A DNA stretch of 64,000 nucleotides from a virus. The DNA lies in the IMG/VR virus record IMGVR_UViG_3300046779_000879, positions 1-64,000 of that record; one strand, 5' to 3'. The notes beneath the pieces are model-generated. The model saw nothing but the letters and a program-made list of their open reading frames with translations, had not been told where the DNA came from and ran no database searches. Positions 8,564-62,782 of the stretch are shown piece by piece. A program made the position numbers and the translations under genes. Numbering within the stretch: the stretch's first letter is position 1; each line of letters opens with the position of its first letter.

Positions 8564-9004
8564 TTCCATAAAAGAAAGTTTGTTCCAATATTTCCAGAAA
8601 AATACACAGGAGACCCAACTAACATTATCATGAGATCTAGTTGGGAAACTATGTTCGCATCTTGGTGTGATAAAAACCCTAGTATTATAAAGTGGAATTC
8701 AGAGGAAACGATTATACCCTATCGTTGTCCTACGGATAATAACATTCATCGATATTTTGTAGACTTTAAAATACAAGTAAGGTCTAAAGACTCTTCTTTA
8801 AAAACCTATCTGGTAGAGGTAAAACCCCAAAAACAGACAGTGGCTCCAGTGTATCCTGGAAAACAAACTCAACGATACCTAACAGAGTCCCTAACTTTTA
8901 TGAAAAATAAAGCTAAATGGGCAGCTGCAGTGGAGTATGCCAAAGATCGAGGATGGGAGTTTAAGATTATAACTGAACACGAGTTGGGTTTGGCACCTAA
9001 ATAA
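8561..9004 (+). CDS. gp4: head completion nuclease gp4
   Basis: PEKYTGDPTNIIMRSSWE..WNSEE..IPY..HRYFVDF..LVEVKP..NKAKWAAA..ITE. Confidence 0.92.
   Translation: MFHKRKFVPIFPEKYTGDPTNIIMRSSWETMFASWCDKNPSIIKWNSEETIIPYRCPTDNNIHRYFVDFKIQVRSKDSSLKTYLVEVKPQKQTVAPVYPGKQTQRYLTESLTFMKNKAKWAAAVEYAKDRGWEFKIITEHELGLAPK
8997..9003 (+). promoter_or_regulatory. late promoter (CTAAATA), 6 nt before the gp2 ATG
   Basis: Recurrent late motif. Confidence 0.6.
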
Positions 9005-9009
9005 CTAAT

Positions 9010-9600
9010 ATGGCAAAACTAAAAGACGTTTTTGAGCGAAATCAGTACGACCTCTTAACAGCAGTTAAGAAATCTCGTGCATGGTTTGAACAGCAAGTAC
9101 TCTTAATAAGTAGGCAACAAATCACACCTCAAAGAGTTCTTCAGGGCAATCCAGAACAATTAACAACTAGAGTTATGCCTGGATTTTTGTATATGTTTGC
9201 ATACGATCCAAAGGGTAAAGCAGAACTTCCATATTATGATAGATTCCCATTAGTTCTTCCGTTTCGTAAAACACCAGATGGATTTATTGGGTTAAATCTA
9301 CACTACTTACCATATCAATTACGTATTACGCTTCTTGATAATTTATTAGTGTTTAAAAATAACGCTAAGATAGATGAAACTACTAAAATTAAGTATTCAT
9401 GGGCACTCATCGATGGAGTCTCAAAATACGCTGCAGCAAAACCCTGCGTGAAGCAATATCTTACTGGTCATGTTAGATCTCAATTTAGACAGATAAACTC
9501 TAATGATTGGGCGACCGCTATGTTACTTCCAGTTGAAAGATTCGTGGGAGCAAGCAAACAAGAAATCTGGGCAGAGTCCAGAAAGATAATGAGAAAATAA
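9010..9600 (+). CDS. gp2: DNA end protector gp2
   Basis: MFAYDPKGKAELPYYDRFPLV..GLNLHYLP..R..KPCVKQYL..HVRS. Confidence 0.92.
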   Translation: MAKLKDVFERNQYDLLTAVKKSRAWFEQQVLLISRQQITPQRVLQGNPEQLTTRVMPGFLYMFAYDPKGKAELPYYDRFPLVLPFRKTPDGFIGLNLHYLPYQLRITLLDNLLVFKNNAKIDETTKIKYSWALIDGVSKYAAAKPCVKQYLTGHVRSQFRQINSNDWATAMLLPVERFVGASKQEIWAESRKIMRK

Positions 9601-20306: not shown

Positions 20307-20788
20307 TTTGAAACTCCTATAAAATTAATATTGACATCTGGATTACTATCGATGATATCATTCCATCGTTTTCGCCAAATACTTACTTTCTCACTACTAT
20401 CTAATGATCTACTATCAATCCACTGATGTGTGTAACTTTCAGTGTTTTCTGTAAACCAAGAGTCACATCCATAGATATCTACTTCTTTATATCCAAGATC
20501 AATAACCTTTCTTGTGGCAGCATGTCCACTTGAATCATGTTCTTGAAATTTATCTACGAATCCTAAAAAGTATGGTTCAAATCTCTGTCTCTTATGTAAC
20601 TCTCGCCAAGCATCAACACTTACATAAAATGGACATGGAGTTTCCCATCTCTCTAATACATTAACATCTATGACAACTGTTGCATTTACTTTAGTCCAAG
20701 GTATGTTACAACCTATTACATAATCATACTCTAAAGATGAAAGATAGTCAACTCTACTTGGTCCATTACAAAGAACTGCAACTTTCAT
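20303..20788 (-). CDS. DUF115/MptE- or sialyltransferase-like fold protein
   Basis: VAVLCNGPS..VIGCN..SSGHAA..LGYKEVDIYGCD. Confidence 0.5.
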   Translation of the reverse strand: MKVAVLCNGPSRVDYLSSLEYDYVIGCNIPWTKVNATVVIDVNVLERWETPCPFYVSVDAWRELHKRQRFEPYFLGFVDKFQEHDSSGHAATRKVIDLGYKEVDIYGCDSWFTENTESYTHQWIDSRSLDSSEKVSIWRKRWNDIIDSNPDVNINFIGVSK

Positions 20789-20805
20789 TTCTATCTCCGA
20801 ATTAG

Positions 20806-21150
20806 TGATAGGTTATTCTGTTACGAGGAAACCTATCGAAACCCTAAGCAGTGTTTAGGCTGCTAATGCGAACTGTGCGTCGTTTGCGTTTACGTTTTTT
20901 GCGCTTTTATTTGGGGTCTTTGAAATTATCTCTTGAACCTTTCGGTCTACACCCAAACCAGTAGTCGCCTACTGTGCTGTCCACTCTGTTACTCATTGCC
21001 CTGTCGAAACCTAGTCACCCCCATCAGAAGTATATTGCCACTTTCGTGTTTGCTTCCAGAATACTCGGATCGTCAATATACTTTTGGTGGAGGTGGAGGG
21101 AATCGAACCCTCGTCCAGAACACCTTTCTCTTTGCTTCATACAGCAATTC
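20806..21150 (-). ncRNA. ssrA: circularly permuted (two-piece) tmRNA; tag ANDAQFALAA; outer limits approximate
   Basis: T-arm and acceptor 3' strand ..GGTTCGATTCCCTCCACCTCCACCA (ends 21085) come first. An intervening stem follows, then GGGGGTGACTAGGTTTCGAC (starts 21022). G3:U70 is present; tag ORF 20855-20887. Confidence 0.93.
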
Positions 21151-21251
21151 TTTACATAAGCCAATGTACAAACACTAATATCATTAGTAGTATTATTACA
21201 ATGACTTCATATGCTTTCATACATCTATTATACTTTATATATTGTTACATG

Positions 21252-43860: not shown

Positions 43861-44682
43861 CTATATCAATTTTTTTTCTATTAAATACTTTTCAAAATCC
43901 CATTCAAAAAGATCGGTTACGCATAACATTGGGTTTGCAGAAGCTATTATTGGTAACTTTTTATTAAACCAATCTTCTATATGAAAATGAGATCCACGAT
44001 TTTTCTTAGGAAATACTGTATCAGGAAAACAATCTTTGTAAATTTTATCTCTTATGTCAAATCCCTTTTCTTTAGTAGTCTTAAACTCTTTTAAGAAAAT
44101 TGGATGTCGGACATAAGATAATAGTATTCTGTCTGTTGTAAAGTTAAACCATTTTTCTGAATTGTTTCTAATAAGTTCTCGACACTGCCAAGTTATAGGC
44201 ATTTTACCATTAATAACTTTATATTCTGAACATGCACCAGATAAGAATATTCCTTGAAATCCTTTGTCTTGTTGAAGTTTCATCATATATTCCATCATAT
44301 ACAGATTAAAAACCCTATGAACTACCCTATTAGTTTGTGATCTATGCATCACAAACTCGGAAAATAATCTTTCATCTAAGTAAATCGGCTCATGATTTAT
44401 TTTCCATTGTCTACAAAAAGAAGTGCTTACTAAACTATCGTAATCACTAAGATCTTTTTTATGAACATAGGTACAAGCAGTGAATGGAATACCAAGTTCA
44501 ATTAAACATCTTGCTATAAATCTACTGTCACAGCCACCACTAAGAATTAGTTTTACATCTTTATTTTTACATATTTGTTCAAAGTGATCTAATACTTCTT
44601 CTTTGAATGATTTTAAAGTAGATTCAACTGAGAAATCTATTTCTACATCACACTTGTTTATATGTATAAAATTATACTTCAT
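43861..44682 (-). CDS. PP-loop (adenine nucleotide alpha-hydrolase) family protein
   Basis: LILSGGCDS motif. Confidence 0.6.
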   Translation of the reverse strand: MKYNFIHINKCDVEIDFSVESTLKSFKEEVLDHFEQICKNKDVKLILSGGCDSRFIARCLIELGIPFTACTYVHKKDLSDYDSLVSTSFCRQWKINHEPIYLDERLFSEFVMHRSQTNRVVHRVFNLYMMEYMMKLQQDKGFQGIFLSGACSEYKVINGKMPITWQCRELIRNNSEKWFNFTTDRILLSYVRHPIFLKEFKTTKEKGFDIRDKIYKDCFPDTVFPKKNRGSHFHIEDWFNKKLPIIASANPMLCVTDLFEWDFEKYLIEKKLI

Positions 44683-44685
44683 GTA

Positions 44686-45258
44686 TTATTTTTTAAATTT
44701 TAGTACAGTGTTAAAAGCAATTGAAATTCTATCTTCACTTGATTCATTAGAAATTACGCTATGTGGTAACCAAGAAGGAAACAACACTAATTGTCCTGTG
44801 CTTGGTTTAATCCGAATCACTGTAGAGTTGTACGAATTATATTCTTTAATCATGTTAGGAAAAATGACAAATGCAGCAACTGGATTTGGATTACTAAACT
44901 CCAACGCTGACGCATCTTTCCCTGCCTTAACATAATACACTCCTGACATTAACATCCCTGGACAATCATTATGTACATGATGTGCAACAATATATGGATT
45001 AGAATTTATATTCACCCATGCATTGTAAATTTTTTGTTCAGTGGCATCAGAAAATTGTAAATGGTCATGTAATGCATCAATTCTAGCACCAATCTCAGTG
45101 AACAATTCTTTTAATTCTGGTTCTGTTCCTTTGAAATAGGTAGTTTTATCTTTCTCTACACCTTCAGTCACTTTGTAGCAATAGTCAGCTATAGAATCAT
45201 TATCTATTTCCAATTCATCTGCTGCAAAGAAATTACTAAAAACATTTTCAATCTTCAT
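44686..45258 (-). CDS. putative 2OG-Fe(II) oxygenase (TIGR02466-like)
   Basis: WVN..H.H..SGVYYV..P..G.LVLFPSWLPHSV..N..RISIAFN. Confidence 0.85.
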   Translation of the reverse strand: MKIENVFSNFFAADELEIDNDSIADYCYKVTEGVEKDKTTYFKGTEPELKELFTEIGARIDALHDHLQFSDATEQKIYNAWVNINSNPYIVAHHVHNDCPGMLMSGVYYVKAGKDASALEFSNPNPVAAFVIFPNMIKEYNSYNSTVIRIKPSTGQLVLFPSWLPHSVISNESSEDRISIAFNTVLKFKK

Positions 45259-45283
45259 AAACTCACTCTCTTTTATTTTAAAA

Positions 45284-45358
45284 TGGCTCCAAAGGTAGGG
45301 ATCGAACCTACGACCAATTGATTAACAGTCAACTGCACTACCGCTGTGCTACTTTGGA
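45284..45358 (-). tRNA. tRNA-Asn(GTT)
   Basis: Cloverleaf; TTGA-CTGTTAA-TCAA; CCA encoded. Confidence 0.95.
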
Positions 45359-45366
45359 ACAAACTT

Positions 45367-45450
45367 TGGTGCGAGAGGAGAGACTCGAACTCTCACGACT
45401 CACGTCACTGGCTTCTAAGACCAGCGTGGCTACCATTACACCACTCTCGC
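45367..45450 (-). tRNA. tRNA-Leu(TAG)
   Basis: Cloverleaf; long variable arm; CTTAGAA loop. Confidence 0.95.
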
Positions 45451-45462
45451 ATCTACTTATCT

Positions 45463-45540
45463 TGGTCGGAGATGAAGGATTCGAACCTTCGGTCTTCTGC
45501 TCCCAAAGCAGACGGATTAACCAGACTTTCCCAATCTCCG
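45463..45540 (-). tRNA. tRNA-Pro(TGG)
   Basis: Cloverleaf; TTTGGGA loop. Confidence 0.95.
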
Positions 45541-45548
45541 ATAAACTT

Positions 45549-45622
45549 TGGTGCTCCCTGACAGAATCGAACTGCCATCAGAGGATTACAAATCCACTGT
45601 AATACCATTATACTAAGAGAGC
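45549..45622 (-). tRNA. tRNA-Thr(TGT)
   Basis: Cloverleaf; TTTGTAA loop. Confidence 0.9.
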
Positions 45623-45623
45623 A

Positions 45624-45697
45624 TGGTTGCGGATGCTGGAATCGAACCAACAACTGAAGCATATGAAACTTCCGAGATACCGTTTCTCTAATCCGCT
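45624..45697 (-). tRNA. tRNA-Met(CAT) with initiator-like 1:72 mismatch
   Basis: GAAGT-TTCATAT-GCTTC; unpaired A1:A72; ACCA end. Confidence 0.85.
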
Positions 45698-45703
45698 ACA
45701 ACT

Positions 45704-45778
45704 TGGCGACTCGTGGGAGGATCGAACTCCCGTGATCGGATAGACAATCCGACGTAATAACCATTATACGAACGAGCC
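45704..45778 (-). tRNA. tRNA-Asp(GTC)
   Basis: TCGGA-TTGTCTA-TCCGA; GCCA end. Confidence 0.93.
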
Positions 45779-45784
45779 ATTATT

Positions 45785-46368
45785 TTAAAATGGAATGTAA
45801 TGTTCATTGTATGTTTTTTGAATACTATTTTGAACAACTGGTATTAAATCAAATGCTATAGTTATTCTTGGAAAATCTTCATCCCACTCTGAACTTTTAT
45901 GTTTGTCGCCATCAGACTTACCAAAAACTAAAAGACCATTTTTATTTTGAACATCATATTGTATATCTGGAGGAATTTTATAACTTGTATAAGAATTTCC
46001 TACATTTACACAATAATATCCATGATATGCTCTGGCACTACTTTCCCAGTGTCCATGCCAATCTATAAAACTTCCTTTTTTAAAAACATTTAACCAACAT
46101 TGAATCACATATTGTTTTTCTGGTAGTAAAGGTTTAACAACCTCTCTTATATTTTCTAACAAATCATTTGTGTGTTGAGTATGATAACTAAAAAAGTTGT
46201 ACTTGCTAAAATTTTGCGTAGTGTAAGAACCAGCTAGTGTAGATATTTCTTGTTCACCATTTTTATCTATCACATACTTCTCTAATTCTAGACAGTTTTC
46301 AAGTAGTTTTTATTATCAATTTGTATCATCTTTGAAAATAAAAAATTAGGAATTAGTTCATTTATCAT
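45785..46368 (-). CDS. putative 2OG-Fe(II) oxygenase with an apparent 1-nt frameshift near the 5' end
   Basis: CWLN..WHGH..HGYYCV..H.S..RITIAFD; the RBS-led ATG at 46368 is 1 nt out of frame with the main ORF (45785-46273). Confidence 0.65.
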
Positions 46369-46383
46369 ACATTATCCTTATTT

Positions 46384-46467
46384 TGGTGGAGAATCTTGGA
46401 GTCGAACCAAGTTTCCAGAGGACACAGATTTACAGTCTGCTGCAGTCGCCAATGCTGCTCATTCTCC
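46384..46467 (-). tRNA. tRNA-Tyr(GTA)
   Basis: CAGA-CTGTAAA-TCTG; long variable arm. Confidence 0.93.
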
Positions 46468-46474
46468 AATACTA

Positions 46475-46590
46475 TTAGTTTAGCTGACGCACTGTTTGCT
46501 ATACCTCAACAGCTTTACTCGAGTTTACTGTTTATTGATATAGTTACGGAGAGTTGACGTTTACTCAATGGCTTACATCAGCTAAACTAA
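46475..46590 (-). ncRNA. candidate structured ncRNA between tRNA-Glu and tRNA-Tyr
   Basis: Termini form a 13-bp perfect stem (17 bp with G-U pairs): TTAGTTTAGCTGA/TCAGCTAAACTAA. Confidence 0.5.
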
Positions 46591-46665
46591 TGGTACACGA
46601 TAGGAGAATCGAACTCCTCTTCCTGCCGTGAAAGGGCAGTGTCCTAACCGATAGACGAATCGTGC
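46591..46665 (-). tRNA. tRNA-Glu(TTC)
   Basis: CTGCC-CTTTCAC-GGCAG. Confidence 0.95.
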
Positions 46666-46779
46666 ATAGTGGTAGTTTTTAGAGAACTACCAAACTCTGC
46701 GTACTTGCATGGGTAACTTATCCCAACTTCATGCTTTAGATTCGACTAAAGACTCATAGAAGATTTCAGAAGAACTACT

Positions 46780-46808
46780 ATTATACATCAAAACTTATTG
46801 CAAGACAA
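46780..46808 (-). promoter_or_regulatory. sigma70-type promoter inside the tRNA array
   Basis: TTGTCT-17 nt-TATAAT. Confidence 0.75.
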
Positions 46809-46816
46809 CAATTATC

Positions 46817-46893
46817 TGGAGTGGGTGACAGGGATCGAACCTGCATAATACGGATTTGCAATCCGTCACCTAACCATTCAGTAGCACACCCAC
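46817..46893 (-). tRNA. tRNA-Cys(GCA)
   Basis: ACGGA-TTGCAAA-TCCGT; TCCA end. Confidence 0.93.
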
Positions 46894-46899
46894 ATAATC

Positions 46900-46974
46900 T
46901 GGCACGGCATGGAGGAATCGAACCACCATTCTGAGTTTAGAAGACTCATGTCCTATCCGTTGAACGAATGCCGT
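46900..46974 (-). tRNA. tRNA-Arg(TCT)
   Basis: TGAGT-CTTCTAA-ACTCA. Confidence 0.95.
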
Positions 46975-46979
46975 ATAAC

Positions 46980-47067
46980 TGGCGGAAGAACTGAGATTCG
47001 AACTCAGGGAACATTTCTGTTCGGCAGTTTTCAAGACTGCTGGTTTAAACCACTCACCCACTCTTCC
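46980..47067 (-). tRNA. tRNA-Ser(TGA)
   Basis: GCAGT-CTTGAAA-ACTGC; long variable arm. Confidence 0.95.
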
Positions 47068-47073
47068 TAAACT

Positions 47074-47158
47074 TGGTGCGACTGACCAGAATCGAACTGG
47101 TATGACTTGCGTCGAGAGATTTTAAGTCTCTTGTGTCTACCTATTTCACCACAGTCGC
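47074..47158 (-). tRNA. tRNA-Leu(TAA)
   Basis: AGAGA-CTTAAAA-TCTCT; long variable arm. Confidence 0.95.
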
Positions 47159-47167
47159 AATAACTCT

Positions 47168-47196
47168 ATTATACCCCAAACGATCTTGCAAGTCAA
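47168..47196 (-). promoter_or_regulatory. sigma70-type promoter upstream of tRNA-Leu(TAA)
   Basis: TTGACT-17 nt-TATAAT. Confidence 0.75.
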
Positions 47197-47271
47197 TGGT
47201 GTGCCAACTAAGAATTGAACTTAGACTCAACCGATTATGAGTCGGACGCTTTACCATTAAGCTATTGGCAC
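47197..47271 (-). tRNA. tRNA(CAT), probably Ile2 (lysidine, reads ATA)
   Basis: CCGA-CTCATAA-TCGG anticodon arm and TTCAA T-loop resemble bacterial tRNA-Ile2; elongator Met not excluded. Confidence 0.8.
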
Positions 47272-47278
47272 ATTGTTC

Positions 47279-47326
47279 TTATTGCACGTTTTCGTGAATC
47301 CACTTCCAGTATTCTTCTACTGTCAT
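47279..47326 (-). CDS. 15-aa micropeptide MTVEEYWKWIHENVQ
   Basis: AGAGGAG RBS 6 nt before the ATG; lies right after the terminator. Confidence 0.45.
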   Translation of the reverse strand: MTVEEYWKWIHENVQ

Positions 47327-47340
47327 TTCTTTCTCCTCTA

Positions 47341-47377
47341 AAAACAAAAAACCCTCGGAGATTTCTCTGCGAGGGTT
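47341..47377 (-). terminator. intrinsic terminator of the putative attenuator
   Basis: AACCCTCG-CAGAGAAATCTC-CGAGGGTT followed by TTTTGTTTT. Confidence 0.85.
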
Positions 47378-47398
47378 GATGAAAAGTATAATTACCTA

Positions 47399-47491
47399 TC
47401 AGCTAACCCTCACTCCTAGATTTAGGTATGAGTGTTCCAAGCCACATAATAGTGGATTGGTTGTTCTAAGTGTAGGTATATGTTTCATCAT
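47399..47491 (-). CDS. putative attenuator leader peptide (30 aa) MMKHIPTLRTTNPLLCGLEHSYLNLGVRVS
   Basis: Its last codons carry GTGAGGGTT, complementary to the terminator 5' arm; its codons match the phage tRNA set. Confidence 0.65.
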   Translation of the reverse strand: MMKHIPTLRTTNPLLCGLEHSYLNLGVRVS

Positions 47492-47499
47492 AGTAATTC

Positions 47500-47506
47500 T
47501 ATTTAG
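47500..47506 (-). promoter_or_regulatory. late promoter (CTAAATA), 8 nt before the leader ATG
   Basis: Recurrent late motif. Confidence 0.6.
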
Positions 47507-47514
47507 GATTTATT

Positions 47515-48021
47515 TTATACATTTAAAACTTTTGCAACACTGTTCATTACTGCAGCAATGCGACCAATGTCACGTAGTTGCTCAACAGTGTAACCCTCTT
47601 TCTTCAGAGTTTCGTAGTGTGCCTTCACGCAGAAGTGGCACTTACCAACGATACTTGCAGCAAGAGAGAATGCTTCAAAATTTACCTTAGTTGTTCCACC
47701 ATGAGATGCAATCGCATTCATGCGTAGTTGAGCAGGTAGACCAGCCAATGCAGGATCGTCTGCCATCTCAACATACGGATACCATACGTTGTTCTGTGCC
47801 ATAATACTTGCAGCAGTCATCGCTGCATTCGCATGAACTGGATTGTCTGCCAACATCACTGCTAGAACTTTACCGTTACCAGTTGCAGCCAATGCAGCCA
47901 CGGCACAACCCATAGCAACATCGGCATCCAATGTGCTACGCAGAAGAACAGCATCAAGATTTAACTTGGTGTCCTTTGCATATTCAGGCAACGCTTCTTT
48001 AATAGAATCGTTGAATGCCAT
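47515..48021 (-). CDS. ahpD: alkyl hydroperoxide reductase AhpD
   Basis: LPEYAKD.KLNL..MAQNNVWY..FE..SLAAS..GKCHFCVKAH. Confidence 0.93.
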   Translation of the reverse strand: MAFNDSIKEALPEYAKDTKLNLDAVLLRSTLDADVAMGCAVAALAATGNGKVLAVMLADNPVHANAAMTAASIMAQNNVWYPYVEMADDPALAGLPAQLRMNAIASHGGTTKVNFEAFSLAASIVGKCHFCVKAHYETLKKEGYTVEQLRDIGRIAAVMNSVAKVLNV

Positions 48022-48563
48022 TAGAGAGTCTCCCCACCCACTGTACGATTACATGCGCACAACTCACCAGTCTGCAATGCATCTAGTACACGAAGTGTTT
48101 CTTCTGGTGAACGACCTACATTCAAGTTATTCACAGTCACGTGTTGAATCACATTTTCTGGATCAACGATGAAAGTGGCACGTAGTGCTGCACCTGCAGG
48201 TTGATAGAACACACCGAGTTGATCAATCAATGACTTATCCCACTCACGTGATGTGTCAGCAAACTGAATGTGCTTCACTTTTTGTAAGTCAGCGTGTGCT
48301 TTCTGCCATGCTACCTTACAGAACTCATTGTCTGTGCTACCAGTCAATAGAACTGCATCACGATCTTCGAAGTCTTGGAACAACTTATCATACGCTACGA
48401 TCTCTGTAGGACATACGAATGTAAAGTCTTTTGGATAGTAAACGATAACCTTCCACTTACCTTCAAATGATTTCTCTGTAATATCAAAGAATGCGTCTTC
48501 TGGTTGTCCAGGTTTTACACCAGTAACAACAAACTTCTCAATTTTATCTCCAACTGTCAACAT
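48021..48563 (-). CDS. ahpC: peroxiredoxin AhpC
   Basis: YPKDFTFVCPTEI..RATFIVDP..VGR..E.LR.LDALQTGELCACN. Confidence 0.95.
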   Translation of the reverse strand: MLTVGDKIEKFVVTGVKPGQPEDAFFDITEKSFEGKWKVIVYYPKDFTFVCPTEIVAYDKLFQDFEDRDAVLLTGSTDNEFCKVAWQKAHADLQKVKHIQFADTSREWDKSLIDQLGVFYQPAGAALRATFIVDPENVIQHVTVNNLNVGRSPEETLRVLDALQTGELCACNRTVGGETL

Positions 48564-61032: not shown

Positions 61033-61563
61033 TTAATCGTTTTTCTCCGCTGGTTTGCTCATTTCAACAACTGGAGGTTTTACTGCATAATTACCAATTG
61101 ATTTTTTATCAACATTATCTAATGCGCCACGTTTCTTCCATTCTTCTTTTGCTGCTTCGCCAATTTTACCCTCAACAGGACATGGCGTTCCTGCTGCTAA
61201 CATAGAAGCAAATACACGCTCGTCTTGGCATAAAGTAGCAACTGCAGCTACTTTCATACCCATATCATACAAATTCTTTGATAATTTGATTCTTTCGCAA
61301 TTCATATCTCTCATAGTTCCACCCATAGAGATACCAAGAATCTGCGTTTGTACTGCACCTGATGCTGCTACTGCGCAGACATCATTATTGATAGATGTGA
61401 TTGCTGGAGCCACTGCTGTTGGTGGCGGAGATTTTACTGTTGTTGTGCTATTTGAAGTAGAATCAGTGGTACTTCTACTAGTCGAATCAGTTACAATTGG
61501 TTGTGCCAATGTAATGGATGAAGCCATGATAAAAAGCACCGCTGTAGCGATCTTTTTAATCAT
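61033..61563 (-). CDS. secreted conserved phage protein
   Basis: Signal peptide; SPPP.A.AP..D.C...SGAVQTQILG.S.G...D.NCER.KL..GMKVAAV..LCQD.RV..AGTPCP. Confidence 0.75.
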   Translation of the reverse strand: MIKKIATAVLFIMASSITLAQPIVTDSTSRSTTDSTSNSTTTVKSPPPTAVAPAITSINNDVCAVAASGAVQTQILGISMGGTMRDMNCERIKLSKNLYDMGMKVAAVATLCQDERVFASMLAAGTPCPVEGKIGEAAKEEWKKRGALDNVDKKSIGNYAVKPPVVEMSKPAEKND

Positions 61564-61618
61564 TTTATTCCCTAAATTGCTTGTTATAATTGATGTGTGG
61601 TTTAACCCACTCAACTAT

Positions 61619-62782
61619 TTAGGACTTCTTTTGTTTTTGGAGTTCTTCGACTTCTTTTTCGATGGTTTTTACACCAGTTGATTGAAACACTTCGCTAACT
61701 TTATTTAAGAAAGATTGTGTTTTTGATGGATTTATCTTCTGTTCGAGTTCTTCCTCAGTCTCTGGAGTAATACGTCTTCCAGCTGAGTCATATTCTACAC
61801 GCTTTTTAACTCTATTATATAACTGAGGTTCCCAGTCCTTAGAATGCTCTTCTATTTTGATTTCTGGTAACTCTGTTTCTTCTGCTTCTTTGAAAGTTTG
61901 TTCATAGTCCATGCCATCTACTTTAGTGACAGTAACTTCCTCTTGAACGCTAACTTTATCTTCAATATCAGCACCCTCCTTTGCGAAAAAGGAATTCCAT
62001 GTAGTTGGTGGTGTATCAACTACATCTTCTTTTTCTCTACGCTTCTGCCAGTTTGCAGCAACTAACAATAAAACTGCTAAAGGATCAAATACTATAACAA
62101 TAAGAATGGTGACGATGCGAACTGCCTTCTCAAGCATATTCGTATCATTCGCACTTTCGTCACCATATATCAATGCTGCGATATATTTTATTGGTCCAAC
62201 TTCTGCTTCGACTTTACGGACTTCGCTGGCGATTGGCGCACGCTCTTCGTTGAGTTTTGCGATCTTGGCTTGCGCTGCACCGATTTCGTTGAGGATTCTG
62301 GCTCTGTCTTTTTGCTGTCCTCTACGGATGGAAATTGCTCTGTCTGTTCCACTGGCTTCTGTGGTTCGGCTGAGGGTTTGATCAACTTGAGCATCGAGTT
62401 GAGAAAGTTCTTTACGACTTGCATTGATATTTTCCTTTTCTGTTTTAATCTTCTCATCAAGTAATGCTAACTTAGACTGAACATCTCCAGTAGGAATTGC
62501 TTGATCCAAATGTGCCTTTGATAAGAATCCAAAAATGCCCATCGATGTCAACATCATTAATACAACTAGGGCGACTACAAAGTATGACTTCATCAATTTT
62601 GGAATTTCTTTCCAATTTTGATAGAGCCAAGATGCAACTACAAGTTTCGATGCCTCAAGCAACGAACCCATAAGAGCAATTGGTACTACAGCTGCAGCAA
62701 AAATTGCGACAAGACCCATCACTGCGTAATATGCAGCGAGAGCCGACAATGATAGTGCAACTGCAAAAAGTAAATATGTCAT
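61619..62782 (-). CDS. multi-pass membrane protein with coiled coil
   Basis: LE.SKLV.ASW..TSMGIFGFLSKAH..EVGPIKYIA..VFDPLAV. Confidence 0.8.
   Translation of the reverse strand: MTYLLFAVALSLSALAAYYAVMGLVAIFAAAVVPIALMGSLLEASKLVVASWLYQNWKEIPKLMKSYFVVALVVLMMLTSMGIFGFLSKAHLDQAIPTGDVQSKLALLDEKIKTEKENINASRKELSQLDAQVDQTLSRTTEASGTDRAISIRRGQQKDRARILNEIGAAQAKIAKLNEERAPIASEVRKVEAEVGPIKYIAALIYGDESANDTNMLEKAVRIVTILIVIVFDPLAVLLLVAANWQKRREKEDVVDTPPTTWNSFFAKEGADIEDKVSVQEEVTVTKVDGMDYEQTFKEAEETELPEIKIEEHSKDWEPQLYNRVKKRVEYDSAGRRITPETEEELEQKINPSKTQSFLNKVSEVFQSTGVKTIEKEVEELQKQKKS

Follow-up and report, generated by a model that had tools for sequence, protein, structure and literature searches.

Leader-peptide transcription attenuators control many enterobacterial amino-acid operons, including those headed by trpL, hisL, leuL, and pheL, and the leaders of the thr and ilvGMEDA operons are multivalent. 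T-box riboswitches regulate synthetase and amino-acid genes by binding one uncharged tRNA via a specifier codon and the T-box sequence, without translation, and the tnaC leader blocks Rho by arresting the ribosome. As a rule, phage tRNA genes are viewed as passively expressed cargo that serves to match codon usage or to make up for host tRNAs destroyed by degradation or anticodon nucleases. Here, we analyze a 64,000-nucleotide (nt) stretch of viral DNA (positions 1 to 64,000 of the IMG/VR record IMGVR_UViG_3300046779_000879, hereafter the window), in which a short minus-strand leader precedes an array of phage tRNA genes. The original prediction for this leader, made from the sequence alone, was a codon-sensing transcription attenuator. 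Its observation is confirmed by our analysis, and its interpretation is supported as far as sequence analysis reaches: we consider it reasonably probable that the leader is a ribosome-mediated (leader-peptide) transcription attenuator in front of the tRNA array, which probably raises phage tRNA output when ribosomes run slowly. The comparison supports a known kind of control in a new setting, in which leader-peptide attenuation would act on viral tRNA genes and read several codons. Full-text literature searches yielded nothing on attenuation or on a leader peptide before phage tRNA genes; no described phage tRNA operon is known to be under such control.

All parts of the predicted layout, namely the promoter motif, the 30-codon open reading frame (ORF), the intrinsic terminator, and the tRNA genes, were located on the minus strand. 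The prediction had omitted a 15-codon ORF (micro-ORF) led by a Shine-Dalgarno (SD) sequence between the terminator and the first tRNA gene. The elements of the leader are as follows.

47506-47500, minus strand: predicted late-type promoter motif CTAAATA, 8 nt before the leader ATG; the 5' untranslated region would be 2-3 nt
47491-47399, minus strand: leader ORF, 30 codons and TGA, encoding MMKHIPTLRTTNPLLCGLEHSYLNLGVRVS; no SD; second in-frame ATG at 47488
47411-47436, minus strand: 1:2 hairpin region, AACACUCAUACCUAAAUCUAGGAGUG.., with the CACU..AGUG stem at 47434-47411
47405-47413, minus strand: antiterminator 5' strand GTGAGGGTT, formed by codons 27-29; it can pair with the terminator 5' arm
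47378-47398, minus strand: spacer with the small internal hairpin GGUAAUUAUACU, enclosed by the antiterminator helix
47341-47377, minus strand: intrinsic terminator with arms AACCCTCG (47377-47370) and CGAGGGTT (47357-47350) and a T-run to 47341; -15.6 kcal/mol; loop longer than the 8 nt allowed by a simple terminator scan, which therefore did not report it
47338-47333, minus strand: SD GAGGAG, followed at 47326-47279 by the micro-ORF, encoding MTVEEYWKWIHENVQ and ending in a stop codon; first gene after the terminator

One of the enterobacterial attenuators is that of pheL (PMC3082878). As in the enterobacterial attenuators, a promoter-proximal short ORF and an intrinsic terminator stand before the regulated genes, and the antiterminator 5' strand shares sequence with the last codons of the ORF; as a result, termination would follow when a ribosome reaches the stop codon, and read-through when it stalls. 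As in trp-type leaders, the 1:2 hairpin found in the window's family is predicted to bring about termination without translation, and, as in the ilv and thr leaders, several different codons would be sensed. The phage module differs from the enterobacterial attenuators in five respects: (i) it precedes viral tRNA genes rather than enzymes of amino-acid biosynthesis; (ii) its leader has no tandem regulatory codon and instead contains a broad sample of the codons read by phage tRNAs; (iii) its leader mRNA appears to be leaderless or nearly so, whereas the enterobacterial ones are SD-led; (iv) a protector hairpin is missing from most phage families, in which an untranslated leader would read through; and (v) a conserved micro-ORF of 15 amino acids follows the terminator. 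The T-box riboswitches (RF00230) likewise tie tRNA supply to the choice between terminator and antiterminator in a leader, but, unlike them, the phage leaders conserve an open frame.

The 181-nt leader of the window folds far better than shuffled sequences (z-score -5.4), into a first hairpin, the 1:2 hairpin containing GUGAGGGUU, and the terminator. The hairpin proposed upstream of the antiterminator is thus present in the minimum free energy (MFE) fold, where it sequesters the antiterminator strand when the ribosome is absent. The proposed pairing of codons 27-29 with the terminator 5' arm is also reproduced: in RNA cut before the 3' arm and devoid of its 5' part, GTGAGGGTT pairs with AACCCTCGC (-23.8 kcal/mol, z-score -3.8), and the helix of GUGAGGGUU with AACCCUCGC encloses the small spacer hairpin. 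The antiterminator duplex itself has an energy of -17.4 kcal/mol (P = 0.01 against shuffles). The spacer segment UUUUCAUCA can alternatively pair with AUGAUGAAA in the 5' part of the leader.

Relatives of the module were gathered from viral and metagenome contigs with patterns back-translated from the micro-ORF. The ahpD-like gene that adjoins the leader of the window on its upstream side was rejected as a handle for this purpose: among 80 ahpD loci that were fetched, the downstream DNA differs in each, only one (L051) contains the module, 1.7 kb away, and none has the module adjoining ahpD. At the L051 locus, a similar terminator is followed by an ORF encoding MSTEEYWQWIRDNVQ and a stop codon, which pointed to the micro-ORF as a handle. 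The search with the micro-ORF resulted in 161 loci with 89 distinct DNA versions; only four contigs of metagenome-assembled genomes carry it among 185,579 species genomes. The full module was identified in 46 distinct loci, where it heads tRNA arrays or lies between tRNA blocks, after the 3' end of the preceding block. These modules form 12 families, and no similarity of leader peptides can be recognized between families. Searches by blastn with the window leader, the modules of families C and D, and the micro-ORF against cultured phages gave only tRNA or chance matches; as judged from the contigs that carry it, the module is one of uncultured, mostly freshwater phages.

The conserved upstream ORF that the original prediction expected in relatives was found throughout this set. 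In about 50 loci, an intrinsic terminator of the form A-A-ACCC..GGGT-T-T stands immediately before the SD of the micro-ORF, and the terminators have energies of -12 to -22 kcal/mol in all modules. A leader ORF of 22-44 codons whose stop codon lies 17-27 nt before the terminator stem is present in 46 of the 46 modules with a true terminator. When dinucleotide shuffles are searched for an ORF that has at least 20 codons and a stop codon 15-30 nt upstream of the terminator, 2-8% of them per family contain one, compared with 12 of the 12 families among the real leaders (Fisher P = 4e-7). In families B and C, the two that vary in length, all insertions and deletions are multiples of three (3, 6, or 9 nt), and the single 1-nt insertion in family D creates a new frame that still stops at the same place. 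Substitutions in the leaders are distributed over the three codon positions as 30/33/49, a weak third-position bias that fits a leader that is translated but whose peptide product is unimportant.

The start of the leader is also similar across families. T4-type late promoters are characterized by a TATAAATA-like element approximately 6-7 nt upstream of the start and by the lack of a -35 element. The CTAAATA motif of the window, a candidate late promoter, agrees with six of the eight positions of TATAAATA. An [ACG]TAAATA(A) motif is observed upstream of the leader ATG in 11 of the 12 families. In families A, E, G, H, and I, a motif of the TAAATA type stands 5-8 nt before the ATG, and in families B and C it lies within the spacer of a TTGACA-17-TATAAT/TACAAT promoter whose -10 element ends 6-9 nt before the ATG. 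Overall, a TAAATA or -10 motif lies 5-10 nt ahead of the leader ATG in the families, one of which relies on an SD instead. Judging from these motifs, a leaderless or near-leaderless start of the leader is a trait across the module families; in family D, the start is SD-led instead, and the rest of the module is kept. Sequence and comparison together thus describe a layout of an ATG-proximal promoter motif and a short ORF with a kept frame, a kept stop position, and an unconserved peptide.

Alternative terminator and antiterminator structures are a hallmark of riboswitches and T-boxes as well, and an RNA-only switch, such as a riboswitch, a T-box-like tRNA sensor, or a protein-binding leader, in which the ORF plays no part, could account for them. 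Sub-threshold Rfam hits of the leaders are to attenuator-type leaders (the trpB motif with E = 2.3 and the PyrR site with E = 0.22). However, such a switch leaves unexplained the open frame, the insertions and deletions in multiples of three, and the fixed stop position. The families have no aptamer-like sequence in common, and no Rfam family, the T-box included, matches the leaders at a useful score. The T-box was rejected as a candidate, with no match to RF00230 up to E = 10 in 44500-48200 and none up to E = 1 in the modules of families C and D. We regard an RNA-only switch as highly improbable.

A second line of evidence for ribosome-mediated attenuation is provided by the pairing between the leader and the terminator. 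In nearly every family, the leader ends in a G-rich segment able to pair with the terminator 5' arm. The duplex energies range from -14 to -24 kcal/mol, with P<=0.01 in most comparisons with shuffled sequences, and the stop codon of the leader follows the paired GGG by 4-18 nt. Families A2, B, C, C2, D, and F have comparable hairpins in the spacer. In MAFFT alignments, the terminator was aligned across families but the antiterminator was not, even when the sequences were cut at a common anchor; therefore, covariation was measured in Python by anchored pair counts and duplex energies. The energies of cognate duplexes between leader and arm sum to -187 kcal/mol, compared with -140 +/- 11 kcal/mol when leaders are combined with the arms of other families (family-level permutation, P = 1.5e-4). 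Thus, the antiterminator tracks its own terminator in the relatives, as had been proposed. In anchored, ungapped comparisons, the six pairs flanking the GGG:CCC core are canonical in 84% of cases versus 65% with a foreign arm (none of 2000 draws reached the observed value) and in 12-48% when the partner is slid. Double-sided changes are observed at three positions: C:G to T:A; T:A to C:G, with T:G intermediates within family C; and T:A to G:C. As far as these sequences indicate, the covariation is real but not overwhelming.

To model the switch, the leaders were folded with a ribosome mask that had a 30-nt footprint, reaching from the A-site codon 15 nt in the upstream and 12 nt in the downstream direction, and was stepped codon by codon. 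In RNA ending before the terminator 3' arm, the antiterminator is the MFE fold in 11 of the 12 families. With the mask, upstream sequence occupies the 5' arm at levels of 0.6-0.9 as long as the A site has not reached the last ~8 codons; from there on, the values are 0-0.2 in families A, A2, C, F, and I, and the remaining families show a less steep fall. The trp-type geometry of the original prediction is recovered here, as the terminator arm is freed only with the ribosome on these last codons. In the window, the occupancy is 0.28 without a ribosome, 0.7-0.8 with the ribosome at codons 2-22, and 0.1 at codons 24-31. As an MFE structure, the 1:2 protector hairpin is specific to the window's family (family A, the window and L088), and it is predicted in part in A2 and D. 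It is absent from families B, C, C2, and F, in which the default fold is the antiterminator. The models suggest a trp-like three-state logic for the window's family, in which an untranslated leader would terminate, and a two-state logic for most other families, in which an untranslated leader would read through. When the full-length leaders are folded with the mask, families C, C2, and F switch cleanly, and the terminator signal in B and H is compatible with switching.

The following mechanism can be proposed for the window. RNA polymerase would start at the late-type promoter, and a ribosome would initiate at the 5' AUG. If this ribosome keeps pace and is on the last ~8 codons or on the UGA when the terminator is transcribed, GUGAGGGUU would be masked, the terminator hairpin would form, and the transcript would end at the T-run. 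If the ribosome lags within codons ~2-22, GUGAGGGUU would pair with AACCCUCGC, the terminator would be blocked, and transcription would read through into the micro-ORF, the tRNA(CAT) gene, and the array. In the window's family, a leader that is not translated would form the 1:2 hairpin and terminate. Public metatranscriptome contigs compared with positions 46900-47900 matched solely through tRNA-like and ahpD-like sequences from other organisms, and no contig spans 47274-47511.

Full-length equilibrium folding gives a different picture for the window, whose terminator wins at every ribosome position. This counts against a switch, and if there is one, its decision must be kinetic, that is, co-transcriptional; the 3:4 hairpin of trp is likewise more stable than the 2:3 hairpin. 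A terminator that always forms at equilibrium would also suit another explanation, in which the stretch between promoter and terminator would be a small gene of its own or a stable small RNA of ~150 nt. The terminator would merely end this RNA and the upstream ahpC/ahpD-like operon, and the complementarity to the terminator arm would be the RNA's own fold or a relic of a duplicated terminator sequence. The T4 tRNA cluster contains stable RNAs. The strong structure of the leader (z-score -5.4) is in line with such an RNA, terminated leader RNAs would accumulate anyway, the array contains other candidate structured RNAs (gaps 46468-46590 and 46666-46816), and the terminator stands 138 nt past the stop codon of the ahpD-like gene, many homologs of which directly precede a terminator. 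However, peptide and RNA sequences are unrelated between families, yet the ORF, the distance from stop to terminator, and the pairing partner are kept. Length changes in multiples of three and a default fold that in most families is the antiterminator, not the terminated RNA, also disagree with a small RNA, and the module travels with tRNA arrays and not with ahpD, which it adjoins in 0 of 80 loci. On balance, we find a stand-alone gene or small RNA quite unlikely.

If the leader is an attenuator, its codons should be informative about the signal. In the array, both ARAGORN and Rfam identify 13 tRNA genes, which have 12 distinct anticodons, where the original prediction had counted 14 tRNAs; no tRNA-Gly is among them, so GGA was wrongly listed among the codons read by phage tRNAs. 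The claim that the leader covers 13 of the 14 tRNAs holds for the broad coverage but not for the count, which is 11 of 12 anticodons, or 12 of 13 genes if one of the two CAT tRNAs, as a lysidine tRNA-Ile2, reads ATA. Against random 30-codon windows of the same genome, a comparison that the prediction had suggested, 18 of the 30 leader codons are decodable by phage tRNAs (11.9 expected, P = 0.03), and the 11 anticodons touched compare with 6.7 expected (P = 0.003). The enrichment holds whether the leader is compared with coding windows or with windows that are open in any frame. The leader contains no runs of one codon.

Because the match had been noticed post hoc in the window, the test was repeated in other loci. 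In families C and D, the leaders use more distinct phage tRNAs than random windows do (P<0.05 in most loci), and at 10 of 24 loci all downstream anticodons that are visible have a codon in the leader. The expectation that leader codons track the tRNA set of each genome is thus borne out in these two families; in families B and F, with few tRNAs visible, the tendency has the same direction and is not significant. The comparison gives moderate support to a design with a panel of codons. Since the leader contains many different codons, most of which are read by phage tRNAs, the likely signal would be slow decoding of any of them, by which tRNA supply would feed back on the transcription of tRNA genes. 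Sensing of anticodon-nuclease damage is something that we purely infer.

The results for families B and F are not the only ones that weigh against this interpretation. The codon-panel enrichment in the window is modest, in addition to having been found post hoc, and the D-family locus with the largest array (L093) has P = 0.18. The pairing excess becomes marginal when it is family-weighted and ungapped (0.70 versus 0.60, P = 0.053), the covariation is partly carried by the common ACCC/GGGT core, and antiterminator pairing is weak in families E, H, and J. Translation of the SD-less leader ORF hinges on the predicted transcription start, and CTAAATA is not over-represented in the window (11 copies observed, 15 expected). 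Finally, the two internal sigma70-like promoters noted in the original prediction, which end at 47168 and 46780, do exist according to a promoter scan, and both bypass the switch.

The moderate codon statistics, absent in some families, lead to one more explanation: the switch may be real but monitor, on a leaderless mRNA, translation initiation or the availability of ribosomes, such as the status of 70S ribosomes, IF2/IF3, or initiator tRNA late in infection, with the codon content being incidental. The near-leaderless start kept in 11 of 12 families agrees with this, as does the lack of one-codon runs of the kind known from trp and his leaders, and in the masked folding any delay of the ribosome over codons 2-22 has the same outcome. 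On the other hand, leader codons exceed random open windows in their coverage of phage tRNAs in three families, some loci use all visible downstream anticodons, and family D has an SD-led start and retains the rest of the module. A sensor of initiation seems to us unlikely, and decoding of the leader codons remains our preferred signal for the attenuator.

If such a sensor raises transcription when decoding slows, phage tRNA supply would become a regulated, self-correcting function, and leader-peptide attenuation would extend from amino-acid operons to tRNA genes and to multi-codon readout. An attenuator would also explain the presence of terminators at the heads of tRNA arrays. For metagenomes, the module provides an annotation signature that consists of a leaderless mini-ORF, a fixed distance from stop to terminator, and the EEYWxWI micro-ORF. 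The family C module with its consensus sigma70 promoter should work in E. coli, which makes the cassette directly testable.

The micro-ORF after the terminator is the second conserved component of these loci. Its 161 instances have a strong SD and the consensus M-[ST]-x-E-E-Y-W-[KQR]-W-I-[HR]-x-N-V-Q followed by a stop codon. The peptide is almost always exactly 15 residues long, and synonymous codons and all three stop codons vary freely, which argues for selection on the peptide itself. With few exceptions, the micro-ORF belongs to phage tRNA arrays, which it heads or in which it is embedded; its ATG is often 13-25 nt after one tRNA gene, and its stop codon is often 1-13 nt before the next. 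No annotation of it and no paper on it were found, and it is too short for gene callers. A possible analogy is tnaC, likewise a short conserved peptide ORF upstream of regulated genes; in the micro-ORF, the peptide sequence itself, including Trp residues, is kept. The peptide may cause arrest, serve in anti-Rho coupling, or be a small effector.

Both components may belong to one dedicated two-part cassette of phage tRNA arrays, in which a leaderless codon-panel attenuator is combined with a functional conserved 15-amino-acid peptide, M-x-x-EEYW-x-WI-x-x-NVQ. In this joint reading, a single ribosome on the leader would report any limiting phage tRNA, for example, after an attack of a host anticodon nuclease or decay of host tRNAs. 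The peptide would either accompany RNA polymerase into the untranslated array, by nascent-chain arrest or an anti-Rho activity, or be a small effector of tRNA processing or of a host defence that targets tRNA. We offer the cassette, in all its parts together, as a speculative and rather doubtful proposal.

In family C, the micro-ORF is separated from the first tRNA gene by a conserved stretch of ~160-190 nt, ..GCAAnnnAACGCGnnCC..CTCAAAAC..GGGCGGCC.. (L085:1113-1298, plus strand, as well as L094 and L115). A similar stretch precedes tRNA-Met in unrelated ahpD loci (L063:6990-7090 and L004:7090-7200). The family C stretch has no match in Rfam, and it may be another array-associated RNA.

The window constitutes the first 64 kb of a source record of 163,642 bp with 37% G+C that is complete according to CheckV. 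The phage is T4-like, with a baseplate protein of the T4 gp5 type. The minus-strand order at the locus is the ahpC-like gene, the ahpD/CMD-like gene, CTAAATA, the leader ORF, the terminator, the SD with the micro-ORF, tRNA(CAT), a sigma70-type promoter, and the remaining array. The features that flank the leader are as follows.

48563-48021, minus strand: ahpC-like gene (peroxiredoxin, AhpC/TSA)
48021-47515, minus strand: ahpD/CMD-like gene, just upstream of the leader
47197-47271, minus strand: first tRNA gene of the array, anticodon CAT (elongator Met or Ile2), called by ARAGORN and Rfam
47168-47196, minus strand: internal sigma70-type promoter TTGACT-17-TATAAT just after the first tRNA gene, which could drive the remaining array independently

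The first tRNA has a G1:C72 pair and is therefore not an initiator. It also has C4:G69 and C5:G68, which we take to be TilS determinants of tRNA-Ile2, and it may decode ATA instead of ATG. Further along the array, two minus-strand gaps, 46468-46590 (123 nt) and 46666-46816 (151 nt), have no tRNA or Rfam match; the latter comes after a sigma70-type promoter.

The ahpC-like and ahpD-like genes form a pair (47515-48563, minus strand) that adjoins the leader. The ahpD-like gene is present in more than 590 viral contigs with protein identities of 89-95%, and its downstream neighbor is almost always a different one; because of these changing neighbors, it looks like a highly mobile auxiliary gene of freshwater phages.

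Most copies of CTAAATA in the window stand upstream of genes on the coding strand. Two further copies, at 8997-9003 (plus strand) and 61616-61622 (minus strand), are 2-7 nt before the starts of the ORFs 9010-9600 (plus strand) and 61033-61614 (minus strand), respectively; these positions suggest that late mRNAs of this phage may often be near-leaderless. A second micro-ORF or a second module was not found elsewhere in the same genome. ARAGORN also called a transfer-messenger RNA at 20764-21177 (minus strand), whose tag peptide is AKNVNANDAQFALAA; this gene and the tRNA array suggest that the phage invests heavily in the maintenance of translation.

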